IMG/VR virus record: IMGVR_UViG_2695420480_000007
DNA length: 13,918 nucleotides
Direction: 5' to 3' (one strand)
Source: a virus
Taxonomy: Duplodnaviria > Heunggongvirae > Uroviricota > Caudoviricetes
The position numbers were made by a program, and so were the translations under genes. The notes beneath the pieces were generated by a model. The model worked only from the letters and a program-made list of their open reading frames with translations, was not told the DNA's origin and ran no database searches. Of the stretch, positions 4,352 to 9,781 are shown piece after piece (position 1 is the stretch's first letter; each line of letters starts with the position of its first letter).

Positions 4352-5125
4352 ATGGATATTACTGAGTTTCCTTCTGGAGTAATTGAACACCTTGGCTGGT
4401 ATGTATACCGATTGATTGATCCGAGGGACGGAAGCACCTTCTATGTAGGGAAAGGCAAAGGTAACCGCGTATTTGCCCATATGCGCGGTGAAGTGGCAGC
4501 GACTGATGATGACGAGTTACTGAGCAACAAGCTAAAGCAAATTAGAGAAATAAGGTTAGCAGGACTTGAGGTTATCCATGTCATCCATCGACACGGAATG
4601 ACTGATGAAAAGACGGCGTACGAAGTTGAAGCAGCACTTATTGATGCCTACCCTGGGTTAACGAATATCATGAATGGTGCTGGCAGCAATGAATTCGGCG
4701 CCGCGCATGTCAAAGAGTTGATAGCAACATATCAACCCGAAACCATAACATTTCATCATAAAGCATTAATGATTTCCGTTAACAGAAGTGCAAAGGATTC
4801 AGAGCTTTATGATGCGGTTCGATTTAGCTGGCGCATTAATGTCTCTCGCGCCAGCCAAGCAGAAGTCATTCTTGCTACTGTAAGGGGGATCGTTCGAGGG
4901 GTTTTCATTGCTGATAAATGGCTCAAATCAACACGTGAAAATTTCCCTACGATGAAATACTGGGACGAGGATCCGGACTTTGAGGCAACACAAAGTTCTC
5001 GCTATGGTTTTGAAGGTCGAGAAGCCCCACCTGAAATAGCAAATCTTTATCTTGGAAAAAAAATACCAGATGAATTAAGAAAAAAAGGAGCTATGTCCCC
5101 GGTCCGTTACTCACCTGATTTTTGA
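4352..5125 (+). CDS. GIY-YIG nuclease-family protein (N-terminal GIY-YIG-like domain plus C-terminal domain of unknown function)
   Basis: Track ORF 4301..5125 begins at TTG; first in-frame ATG is 4352 (MDITEF...). Motif [30 protein letters not shown] resembles GIY…YIG with conserved Arg; candidate catalytic Glu in [10 protein letters not shown]-rich. The 3' 290 bp (4836..5125) is duplicated in inverted orientation at 8336..8625. Confidence 0.6.
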
Positions 5126-5147
5126 GTCTTTAAGTGATAAGCATAAA

Positions 5148-5186
5148 CCGCAGCACGATCTTCTTGCATACGACGTGCTACGGTTT
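5148..5186 (+). repeat. Copy 3 (shortened) of the paralogous element, between the GIY-YIG stop and the invertase stop
   Basis: ccgcagcacgatcttcttgcatacgacgtgctacggttt aligns with the core of copies 1 and 2. It contains a potential 6-bp stem AGCACG/CGTGCT. A mirrored copy lies at 8275..8313 inside the inverted duplication. Confidence 0.45.
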
Positions 5187-5740
5187 CATTTATCTCCGAC
5201 CGGAAACTTCTTATACAGTGTCGATATACCAACATCATAGATGATCGCCACCTTCTGGCGAGGAACGCCTGATGCAATTAATCGCCCGGCCTGCGCCCAT
5301 TGTTCTGGTGTAAGTTTGGGACGACGTCCCCCAATTCGTCCCTGTGCGCGAGCAGCTTCCAGTCCAGCTTTTGTTCGTTCAACAATCAGTTCTCGTTCCA
5401 TTTCAGCCAAGGCACCCATCACATGAAAGAAAAAACGCCCCATCGGTGTGCTGGTATCAATAGCATCCGTCAGGCTGCGAAAATTAACGCCACGTTCGCG
5501 CAACTCCTCAACCAGAATGACCAGATGCCGCATACTACGCCCCAGCCGATCCAGCTTCCAGACAACCAGAGTGTCACCTGCCGATAATGTCCTGAGCAGT
5601 TTTTTCAGTCCCGGCCTTTCGGACTTTGTACCGCTTATCTTGTCTTCAAAAATAAGCTCGCATCCTGCACAGTTCAGCGCATTACGTTGTAGATCTGTGT
5701 TCTGGTCATTTGTTGATACGCGTACATAGCCAATAAGCAT
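5186..5740 (-). CDS. Serine recombinase, DNA invertase of the Pin/Gin/Hin/Cin (Din) family, copy 1
   Basis: Track ORF 5186..5776; the likely start is the internal Met giving MLIGYVRVSTNDQ… (184 aa, the Din-invertase length), with catalytic-Ser region YVRVST and a C-terminal HTH. 100% identical to copy 2. Confidence 0.85.
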   Translation of the reverse strand: MLIGYVRVSTNDQNTDLQRNALNCAGCELIFEDKISGTKSERPGLKKLLRTLSAGDTLVVWKLDRLGRSMRHLVILVEELRERGVNFRSLTDAIDTSTPMGRFFFHVMGALAEMERELIVERTKAGLEAARAQGRIGGRRPKLTPEQWAQAGRLIASGVPRQKVAIIYDVGISTLYKKFPVGDK

Positions 5741-5794
5741 GGTAGATCCCCCTGACAAAAGCAGGAATGATGCCATTTGCTCGTTATTTCTGCA

Positions 5795-5820
5795 TTTTCA
5801 TAAATGTTGGTTTGGGAGAA
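5795..5820. other. 26-bp Din-invertase crossover site (hix/gix-like), site 1
   Basis: TTTTCATAAATG-TT-GGTTTGGGAGAA; the inner half-site is the reverse complement of TTCTCCCAAACC. Exact inverted copy of site 2; the duplication boundary falls at its central dinucleotide. Confidence 0.5.
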
Positions 5821-6288
5821 GGTTCGGCATTACCCGTTGGTGTGCCTGTTCCGTGGCCTTCCGCCACTCCGCCAACAGGCTGGCTGAAATGCAACGGCGC
5901 GGCTTTCTCTGCTGAAGAATACCCGGAACTGGCAAAGGCTTATCCAACAAATAAATTACCTGATTTACGCGGTGAGTTTATTCGTGGCTGGGATGACGGG
6001 CGCGGTATTGATGCAGGACGTGTTTTATTGAGTATTCAGGCCGGAATGCTGGAAAAGCACCGTCATCCTGTTGTCGCCAACGATGGGTATGACTCAAAAG
6101 AGGAATGGGAACTGGCGACAATCTTCAGAAGAGCATATACGCAAGGCAGGGGGCTTGATGCTGCCGCTGCCGGAGGGAGTCTGATCCCATCACCGACACT
6201 TCATTCACGAGGGAGTATCGGTAATACTGGCGGGAGTGAAACCCGTCCACGAAATATTGCATTTAACTTTATCGTGAGGGCTGCATAA
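5809..6288 (+). CDS. Silent tail-fibre C-terminal variable cassette (Sv'), start-less in the current orientation
   Basis: Track ORF 5767..6288; its first 18 aa are read-through across the crossover site. The cassette (…GWLKCNGAAFSAEEYPELAKAYP…LPDLRGEFIRGWDDGRGID…) resembles Mu/P1/e14-type fibre C-terminal domains. Its stop overlaps the tfa' start (TAATG). Confidence 0.6.
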   Translation, partial: GLGEGSALPVGVPVPWPSATPPTGWLKCNGAAFSAEEYPELAKAYPTNKLPDLRGEFIRGWDDGRGIDAGRVLLSIQAGMLEKHRHPVVANDGYDSKEEWELATIFRRAYTQGRGLDAAAAGGSLIPSPTLHSRGSIGNTGGSETRPRNIAFNFIVRAA

Positions 6289-8275: not shown

Positions 8276-8313
8276 AACCGTAGCACGTCGTATGCAAGAA
8301 GATCGTGCTGCGG
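8275..8313 (-). repeat. Inverted copy of element copy 3
   Basis: Reverse complement of 5148..5186, lying within the 985-bp inverted duplication. Confidence 0.45.
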
Positions 8314-8335
8314 TTTATGCTTATCACTTAAAGAC

Positions 8336-8625
8336 TCAAAAATCAGGTGAGTAACGGACCGGGGACATAGCTCCTTTTTTTCTTAATTCATCTGGTATTT
8401 TTTTTCCAAGATAAAGATTTGCTATTTCAGGTGGGGCTTCTCGACCTTCAAAACCATAGCGAGAACTTTGTGTTGCCTCAAAGTCCGGATCCTCGTCCCA
8501 GTATTTCATCGTAGGGAAATTTTCACGTGTTGATTTGAGCCATTTATCAGCAATGAAAACCCCTCGAACGATCCCCCTTACAGTAGCAAGAATGACTTCT
8601 GCTTGGCTGGCGCGAGAGACATTAA
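8336..8625 (-). pseudogene. 3' fragment of the GIY-YIG gene (codons 180..274), inverted duplicate
   Basis: Reverse complement of 4836..5125, exact. Track ORF 8336..8761 is a chimera of this with antisense tfa sequence. Confidence 0.7.
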
Positions 8626-8728
8626 AATCACCCGCCTTAACGCTGTACTGGATTACATTGACGCGGTGACGGCAACAAATACCAGCACAGCGCCGGATGT
8701 CATCTGGCCTGAATTGCCGGAGGCGTAG
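8625..8728 (+). pseudogene. 3' fragment of tfa' (direct duplicate of 6787..6890)
   Basis: Identical to the end of the 200-aa tfa' gene but lacks its 5' 500 bp; begins at the non-site junction at 8625. Confidence 0.6.
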
Positions 8729-9131
8729 GCCATTCAATATCTGGATCACTGGAGGTATCAATCAGTTCCAGTGCGTCCAGATAATCCAGCCACAGATTAT
8801 ATTGCGCCAGTTCCTCGCCTTTCAGACGACCAATAGCGGCTTTACCGGGCCATTGCTTACTGTTCATGTATTCGTTGGCCTGATTAACTAATCGCTGTTT
8901 ATTTGATTCAGCGATTGTGATTAATTCTTCGCTGGTAAGTGGTGGCGCATCCTGCCATATTGGAAAACCATTTTTATCTGAACCAAGTATTTTACCATCA
9001 GGCCATGCAACTCCTGCGAACTCAGAATAAATAGTAAAGTTTATTTTCGTAGCGTTCTCAGGAATGGTTTGGCTATCTGGTGAAATATAAAACCCCGAAT
9101 CAGAGGGATTAAAATAATATGTCTTTTCCAT
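8700..9131 (-). CDS. Tail fibre assembly protein (Tfa, 143 aa), copy B, cognate to the expressed fibre
   Basis: Identical to 6862..7293; directly downstream of the stf gene. Confidence 0.8.
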
Positions 9132-9133
9132 AG

Positions 9134-9781
9134 TTAATACCCCACAGCCATCCAGTAAATTGAATTTGTTGTAGCAGAAGTGTAAGTAAATCTGATTTTA
9201 GTTCTGTTGGTACTTCCAATATCAAAGCCCACAGAACGGGCAGAAGGATCATTAGTTGAAATAAGAGCATTTACCGAACGACAAGCCGCAGGGAAAGCTA
9301 CAGGTAATGTTATATCAACTGTTCCAACACTTCCTCCGGTTGGTGAGACAGAAAAACTCCCCCATTGAATAATCATCCCCCCAGGTAATTTCTGGTATCC
9401 ATTGGCGGTCAATGAGTTACCAAAGCTGTTCATATCCGGTACCTGATTTTCTCCTGTCCCCACATTCCTTTTTGCTGCTTCTCCCAAACCAAGGTTTTCG
9501 AGAGCCGTTTTCACCGTGCCATCCGATTTGATATCGCCAAACGGATTCTTGCGGCTTAACAGCAGCGCGCGAAGTGCGGTAAGTAACTGGTCGTGCCGCC
9601 CCTTCTCCAGGCTGGCACCGGATGCCTCCACCACACTGCAAAGTTCCTCCTGCAACATGTCAAAGTAGTCATCATCCAGATCGGTGGCAGGCGTGCCGGT
9701 CTGGGGGTTACCACGGGTAAAACCGTTCTTACCCGCGCCGAACTTATCCTTCTGCGCGGTTTTCGTGTCTATACGATGCAT
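9134..9781 (-). CDS. Side tail fibre protein (about 97-aa constant N-terminal region fused to the Sv variable region), 215 aa
   Basis: ATG at 9781 with GGAG 7 nt upstream. N-terminus [21 protein letters not shown]… looks like a short e14/Mu-type fibre constant part; the constant/variable junction (…ENLGLGE|AAKRN…) coincides with crossover site 3. Confidence 0.75.
9479..9504. other. 26-bp Din-invertase crossover site inside the stf gene (best palindrome), site 3
   Basis: TTCTCCCAAACC-AA-GGTTTTCGAGAG, close to hixL as I recall it (TTCTTGAAAACC-AA-GGTTTTTGATAA, from memory). Sits at the fibre constant/variable boundary. Confidence 0.6.

Follow-up and report, generated by a model that had tools for sequence, protein, structure and literature searches.

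The closest described systems to the locus discussed here are the Pin/P-region of the e14 element of E. coli K-12 and the pinE loci of Mu-like prophages. In these, one Gin-family invertase lies beside a ~1.8-kb segment that carries Sv, Sv' and tail-fibre assembly genes between inverted 26-bp sites, the sites fall where the constant part of a tail-fibre gene meets its variable part, and the element resides in a defective prophage. All of this is found again in our window, the whole stretch of 13,918 nucleotides that was analysed. Unlike the e14 Pin locus, the element sits at thrW, not at icd, and its prophage is reduced further, while the mechanism is the same. The Mu G segment with Gin, as well as the P1 C segment with Cin and Salmonella Hin with its hix sites, likewise combines a Gin-like invertase with 12-2-12 sites and an AA/TT core, but compared with the Mu G segment the fibre gene is short, encoding 215 aa that end in a gp53-like C-terminal domain, and the tips bear no relation to Mu S/U. 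For such invertases (Gin, Hin, Cin) a Fis-dependent recombinational enhancer is expected in the 5' part of the invertase gene. The locus belongs to a defective prophage at thrW and is an ordinary tail-fibre inversion switch of the Gin/Pin type; we put the probability at about 0.93 that the near-palindrome with two invertases seen in the window is a draft assembly joining both orientations of this ordinary, still-flipping switch.

The real locus runs in the order GIY-YIG gene, pin, site, [Sv' tfa' / tfa Sv], site, fibre constant region. A LEM-3-like GIY-YIG gene (4352–5125, plus strand; Pfam PF22945), annotated in the same way in A22 and HCP5S3_I2, adjoins the invertase. The latter, pin (5186–5740, minus strand, 184 aa; Resolvase plus HTH_7), is called pinE in related genomes and would be the single real copy of this Gin/Pin-family serine DNA invertase. 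It carries an N-terminal catalytic domain (PF00239) and a C-terminal HTH (PF02796) by Pfam, matches phage Mu Gin (3UJ3) over residues 1–181 with E = 9.5e-94, and has a YVRVST motif with Ser where the 3UJ3 chain has Ala; judged by its sequence, it is a small serine recombinase of the invertase subfamily, with active-site serine and HTH in place.

We refer to the window minus 7655–9492 as state 1, and to state 1 with the segment inverted between the AA cores of its 26-bp sites as state 2. Three 26-bp crossover sites are present in the window (5795–5820, 7641–7666 and 9479–9504), with a common inner half-site and AA/TT core. The first, on the invertase side, reads TTTTCATAAATG-TT-GGTTTGGGAGAA, the last, at the boundary of constant region and Sv, reads TTCTCCCAAACC-AA-GGTTTTCGAGAG, and 7641–7666, composed of the inner half-site, the AA core and the invertase-side half-site, is the standard recombinant junction of state 2. 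The site at 9479–9504 (TTCTCCCAAACCAAGGTTTTCGAGAG) resembles Salmonella hixL (TTCTTGAAAACCAAGGTTTTTGATAA). The segment is thus flanked by two inverted 26-bp sites with an identical 2-bp core. Within it lie Sv' (5767–6288, plus strand), an alternative fibre tip with a Collar domain that is silent in state 1 and joined to the constant region in state 2, its partner tfa' (6288–6890, plus strand), the partner of Sv, tfa (6862–7293, minus strand), and a copy of the variable tip Sv (7296–7654, minus strand) that adjoins the invertase side, which is the state 2 arrangement; both tail-fibre assembly proteins are assigned to Caudo_TAP. The state 1 tail-fibre gene, constant region plus Sv, occupies 9134–9781 on the minus strand, and a public collection lists exactly this protein in 449 of its blocks, while the state 2 protein, constant region plus Sv', has 256 aa in two other assemblies (L016 and L021, see below). 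A 132-aa ORF at 7296–7694 recurs exactly in ten ordinary loci with a single invertase, several of them in complete genomes, where it is the usual silent Sv next to pin. The segment accordingly supplies alternative fibre C-termini with two matching assembly genes, the tips being fused in frame to the constant region outside, and the anatomy proposed in the first-pass annotation (site, Sv', tfa', tfa, Sv, site, with invertase, fibre constant region and thrW) is correct.

The repeats described there are also real features of the letters in the window, far beyond chance. An inverted repeat joins 4836–5821 to 7640–8625 (986 nt, 100% complementary; 985 bp had been claimed, the figure obtained when base 8625 is taken as N and not as A), and the 868-bp direct repeat of tfa and Sv was found at 6787–7654 and 8625–9492, 100% identical and ending exactly at the AA core (7654). 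The left arm takes in the 3' 290 nt (4836–5125) of the GIY-YIG gene. The additional arm, 7655–8624, is the reverse complement of 4837–5806, 100% identical to the left arm, and is reached from the state 2 junction; it contains a second, identical invertase ORF of 184 aa (7721–8275, plus strand), so that, as had been reported, identical divergent genes stand on either side of the segment, both transcribed away from it. The second copy of tfa and Sv, 8626–9492, equals 6788–7654 and, as in state 1, is entered from the fibre constant region going leftwards. We also considered 4836 as an ancestral breakpoint and rejected it: strain A22 is 100% identical over 1–4835, has its first mismatch at 4900 and then falls off gradually across pin. 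The idea that 4836 and 6787 are repeat boundaries common to other Mu-like prophages was dropped as well, no boundary being found there in the related loci examined.

What was not upheld is the claim that a shufflon has been rearranged into a near-palindrome in which both invertase genes are intact, since the key junction of this structure, base 8625, is written as N in the source record. The E. coli draft contig CXZE01000004.1 (GCA_001277415.1) equals the window at 13,917 of 13,918 bases, the single mismatch being base 8625, given as A in the window and as N in the record, where it is the sole N within 20.6 kb. The inverted repeat has its outer end at this scaffold gap, and the second copy of the direct repeat starts on the same base (...GAGAGACATTA|(A)AATCACCCGCC...); counted as N, this base leaves an inverted repeat of 985 nt and a direct repeat of 867 nt with an unsequenced junction between them. 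The second invertase arm ends at the N.

Decomposition into the two states leads to the same base. For k = 31 to 151, all k-mers of the window occur in state 1 or state 2, save those spanning 8625, which is thus the only adjacency that two orientations of a one-invertase locus cannot explain. The comparison proposed earlier, with a single-invertase version of the thrW locus in a relative, could be made with L016 (GCA_019513185.1), an independent assembly of the same thrW remnant that is sequence-identical in every segment, has one invertase, lacks the second arm and is in the flipped state. In-silico inversion of the single-copy window at the core of the crossover sites reproduces L016 over 12,080 nt with one SNP. 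Six further contigs of the remnant were found, of which L018, L019 and L021 cross into state 2, while those of the other three assemblies (L017, L020, L022) stop at the crossover site, 9479–9504. Orientation alone therefore differs among 100% identical assemblies, with the state 1 junctions in the window versus state 2 in L016, L018, L019 and L021. Because of this difference, and because the in-silico inversion yields L016, we score inversion as active: both orientations occur, and the switch still appears to flip.

We can explain the window by both states having been written into one scaffold, and the second invertase, the 986-nt arms and the 868-nt direct repeat are then the same DNA twice. 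Pin inverts the 1.8-kb segment, and both orientations were therefore most likely present in the culture that was sequenced. The assembly would have walked A-B-C-D (state 1; D being tfa plus Sv) up to the right-hand site, and at 7641–7666 have taken state 2 reads from D into the reverse-complemented invertase arm (7655–8624). A second piece would have grown leftwards from the constant region into D, as in state 1 (8626–9492), and the two pieces would then have been abutted across a gap written as a single N. Such a pattern resembles the outcome of scaffolding by read pairs, after which the two edges were extended greedily but the gap was never closed. Scaffolders put N gaps between contigs joined by read pairs, and SSPACE and GapFiller, both described as greedy, can make false joins (PMC5320598); GapFiller works inwards from the two edges of a gap, which it closes only when the extended ends share an overlap of at least 10 nt (PMC3446322). 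The Velvet/SSPACE/GapFiller description is offered only as a mechanism that would fit. Both the mixed-orientation culture and the software step behind the join are inferred, and our expectations for read depth over B and D and for the absence of junction-spanning reads are deduced from the N. It should be noted that a single gap-filler applying a 0.7 majority rule would not obviously end up in state 2 on one side of the gap and in state 1 on the other, and that the scaffolder had some read-pair support for the adjacency of the two pieces. The finding is nevertheless classed as an assembly artefact at an invertible segment (hairpin or duplicated paths in a mixed-orientation graph), and like other artefacts at invertible or phase-variable segments it shows the junctions of both orientations, an arm and part of the segment written twice, and a join made of N. 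An assembly chimera of the two inversion states had been named as the alternative in the first-pass annotation, and the N, the two-state decomposition and L016 all favour it.

A real duplication is very unlikely. It would require a template switch or breakage and repair from the right-hand site to the inverted left-hand site, giving B-C-D-B'-D-E, with the invertase arm copied backwards to 4836 and a jump from there to 6787, where the assembler missed one base. Such an event would parallel the inverted-duplication DUP-TRP/INV-DUP rearrangements of human genomics. The scaffolder did put the two pieces side by side, apparently ~0–1 nt apart, the first jump falls exactly within a 15-nt stretch common to the sites, and the A substituted at 8625 fits both flanking repeats, which has a chance of ~1 in 16 if it was an arbitrary stand-in for N. 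However, normal Pin inversion fully accounts for the first jump, and the second is the one position without sequence, where a read-supported junction would not appear as N. Only 1 nt of microhomology is common to both sides at 8625; we had considered it as a sign of a real illegitimate junction as against a graph artefact, and abandoned that reading because the base is N in the record. Perfect palindrome arms of 986 nt with a 1.8-kb spacer would themselves invert and be unstable, and L016 has one invertase in otherwise identical sequence.

The junction was not seen in any collection searched either. It is contiguous in 0 of 5,426 complete E. coli genomes, in none of which any place covers at least 80% of 4300–10000, and exact look-up found neither the 30-nt junction in the GTDB representative genomes nor the chimeric junction ORF, with four alternative starts, among 15 billion proteins. 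H31/H32 brought both probe halves within 580 bp, but this is a decayed locus without pin. No sequenced, read-supported junction of the second invertase arm with the second tfa–Sv copy was found. That the N nonetheless hides a real one, and the isolate has an inverted duplication whose 986-nt palindrome arms each contain a pin gene, is highly improbable; the route would be a template switch between the two crossover sites and then a microhomology jump, and the result would be a bacterial analogue of inverted-repeat-mediated DUP/INV-DUP rearrangement, seeded by a site-specific recombination site. It is hardly credible that the genome has another, related prophage that carries pin and tfa/Sv as well and that pieces of it were mis-scaffolded into the thrW locus: E. 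coli genomes matching the segment do hold a median of two such places, up to eleven, and many Mu-like prophages inserted elsewhere encode exactly these fibre and Sv proteins, but between the extra and the local copies identity is 100%, where the other prophage versions fetched reach 90–99% (DNA), the extra invertase arm joins D exactly at the crossover core, as local state 2 predicts, and in the related loci examined similarity does not break at 4836 or at 6787.

The assembly reading makes the finding chiefly a warning. Segments that flip in culture can lead draft assemblers to put both states in one scaffold, which mimics a spectacular palindrome with duplicated genes, and an N converted to a base when a window is prepared can mask the only clue to the artefact.

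As for the remnant itself, a prophage integrase (11297–12460, plus strand) marks the attachment end adjoining proA, and the thrW tRNA-Thr(CGT) (12475–12550, minus strand), the neighbour of proA, identifies the thrW locus; an Rfam search of the window gave no match beyond this tRNA. The prophage has been cut down: its baseplate genes are gone, and a deletion scar occupies 9785–9961. What it retains is a textbook Pin-type switch, apparently still active in a remnant without baseplate genes, as is already known for e14 in K-12.

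The repeats reported by the first-pass annotation are borne out as window sequence. Self-comparison gives an inverted repeat of 986 nt (4836-5821 and 7640-8625, 100% complementary), and exact extension a perfect direct repeat of 868 nt (6787-7654 and 8625-9492). Each arm of the inverted repeat takes in the 3' end of a GIY-YIG gene (290 nt), an invertase gene coding for 184 aa and a crossover site, and between the arms lie Sv' (with a Collar domain), tfa', tfa and Sv, that is, the alternative fibre tips and their assembly partners. From left to right the window reads as left flank (A, 1-4835), invertase arm (B, 4836-5821), invertible segment (C-D, 5822-7654), B copied in inverse orientation (B', 7640-8625), a second copy of D (D2, 8625-9492) and the fibre constant region onward (E, 9493-13918). 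The locus is thrW of E. coli, from the tRNA-Thr(CGT) gene adjoining proA, and many E. coli genomes match the proA end at 100% identity.

Exact-protein look-up with the fibre protein and a lineage-specific 58-aa scar ORF led to the record from which the window itself derives, the E. coli draft CXZE01000004.1 of GCA_001277415.1 (loci L014 and L015), and to L016 (GCA_019513185.1), in which the thrW remnant was assembled independently. The window and CXZE01000004.1 agree at 13,917 of 13,918 positions; the sole mismatch is base 8625, where the window reads 'A' against 'N' in CXZE01000004.1, and no other N occurs in 20.6 kb of that record. Because the record has N at this base, the adjacency that carries the whole rearrangement is a scaffold gap, not sequence. 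An N-to-A swap during window preparation (2-bit encoding, for example) could give rise to seeming junctions and to chimeric ORFs, of which 8336-8761 is an example.

A switch with one invertase can stand as A-B-C-D-E (state 1) or as A-B-D'-C'-E (state 2). The state-1 junctions B|C and D|E are both present in the window, and D|B' (7641-7666), read on the opposite strand, is the state-2 junction B|D'. The 132-aa ORF spanning D|B' (7296-7694) recurs without any residue changed in ten ordinary loci, each time next to a lone pin gene, and several of these loci lie in complete genomes. The direct repeat stops precisely at the AA core within the 26-bp site. The only junction not predicted by inversion is B'|D2 at 8625, where the GIY-YIG gene is cut midway and fused to tfa', also midway, the two sides sharing 1 nt. 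At k = 31, 61, 101 and 151, all window k-mers are present in state 1 or state 2 apart from those spanning 8625, which confirms the scaffold-gap reading.

L016 has one invertase, with the segment in state 2, and supplies the single-invertase version at thrW that the first-pass annotation had suggested for comparison. Every segment is 100% identical to the window except for one SNP at 1172; in silico, dropping 7655-9492 from the window and inverting what is left at the two site cores reproduces L016 over 12,080 nt bar that SNP. As expected for a flipping segment, among further contigs of the remnant L018, L019 and L021 continue from E into C' (state 2), while L017, L020 and L022 end inside the crossover site. 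A22 and HCP5S3_I2, close relatives at other levels, also have one invertase and the canonical order GIY-YIG, pinE, Sv', tfa', tfa, fibre. The rearranged two-invertase shufflon first proposed is judged not to be a real feature; the fallback offered beside it, in which both inversion states were merged into a chimera, is with high confidence the right one.

Nowhere in 5,426 complete E. coli genomes is 4300-10000 covered to at least 80%, and none of them contains an unbroken match to a 121-nt probe spanning 8625. Two probe matches with both halves were rejected as the junction, being a decayed locus without pin. The 30-nt junction was not found in GTDB representative genomes, nor the chimeric ORF 8336-8761 among 15 billion proteins, and no gene is called at that place in CXZE01000004.1. 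A genuine inverted duplication produced by template switching is very improbable. Mis-scaffolding of pieces of a second prophage into the locus is slightly less probable still. The extra copies match the local ones at 100% identity and attach exactly at the local crossover core, whereas other fetched prophage versions are 90-99% identical.

For the chimera of inversion states, the sequenced culture most likely held both orientations. Assembly would run along state 1 through C-D and, at the right-hand site, switch to state-2 reads, which lead 970 nt into the invertase arm in reverse complement; the other piece would extend from the constant region leftwards into D for 867 nt, and the two, without overlap, would then be abutted with one N. 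Such a pattern would be expected if contigs were scaffolded on read pairs and the gap edges were then each extended greedily, a candidate mechanism for this record. The Sanger pipeline paper describes joins written as N gaps, and both SSPACE and GapFiller as greedy, with false joins possible (PMC5320598). GapFiller closes a gap only where the two extensions share at least 10 nt and agree with the estimated gap size (PMC3446322). Under a 0.7 majority rule it is hard to see how one edge could follow one state and the other edge the other, a point against this account.

What the locus really contains is an ordinary Gin/Pin-type tail-fibre switch. Its invertase is similar to Mu Gin (E = 9.5e-94) and carries the catalytic serine motif, and the crossover sites (5795-5820, 7641-7666 and 9479-9504) follow the 12-2-12 plan around an AA/TT core. 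The fibre encoded in state 1 has 215 aa and a gp53-like tip; that of state 2 has 256 aa, and its tip is a Collar domain. Only a remnant of the prophage is left: it lacks the baseplate genes found in A22, of which the 58-aa ymfQ scar is the sole trace. Pin is evidently still active in it, because assemblies of identical sequence differ in orientation. In this the switch resembles that of the e14 prophage of K-12, a remnant in which Pin is likewise known to be active still.

In A22 (L004, 19972-28835) a full Mu-like set of baseplate, tube, sheath and tape-measure genes follows the fibre gene; in the window the scar ORF (9785-9961) is followed by unrelated HTH/DUF4222 genes, yfdT and an integrase gene. 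L001 (5688-8064; NZ_AP022245.1, also NZ_AP019675.1) has this switch in decayed form, with pin and the Sv tips lost, the fibre gene truncated and the GIY-YIG gene adjoining a tfa fragment. The LEM-3-like GIY-YIG gene (4352-5125) adjoins pin in many, not all, related loci, and an HNH gene or others take its place in some; the position downstream of the invertase looks like a variable cargo slot. A 98-nt direct repeat (1396-1493 and 4066-4163, 82% identity) includes a core of 28 nt that is found again immediately downstream of pin (5150-5177, and 8284-8311), and its homologous stretch in L001 overlaps a pseudogene fragment annotated 'capsid protein'. The left cargo (1-3661) encodes an S1-family serine peptidase (1-1047, minus strand), a BRO-N protein (1679-2440, minus strand), an HTH regulator (2747-3124) and an ImmA/IrrE metallopeptidase (3128-3661). 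Segment 1-4835 is covered to at least 80% in eleven complete genomes, at 99.8-100% identity.
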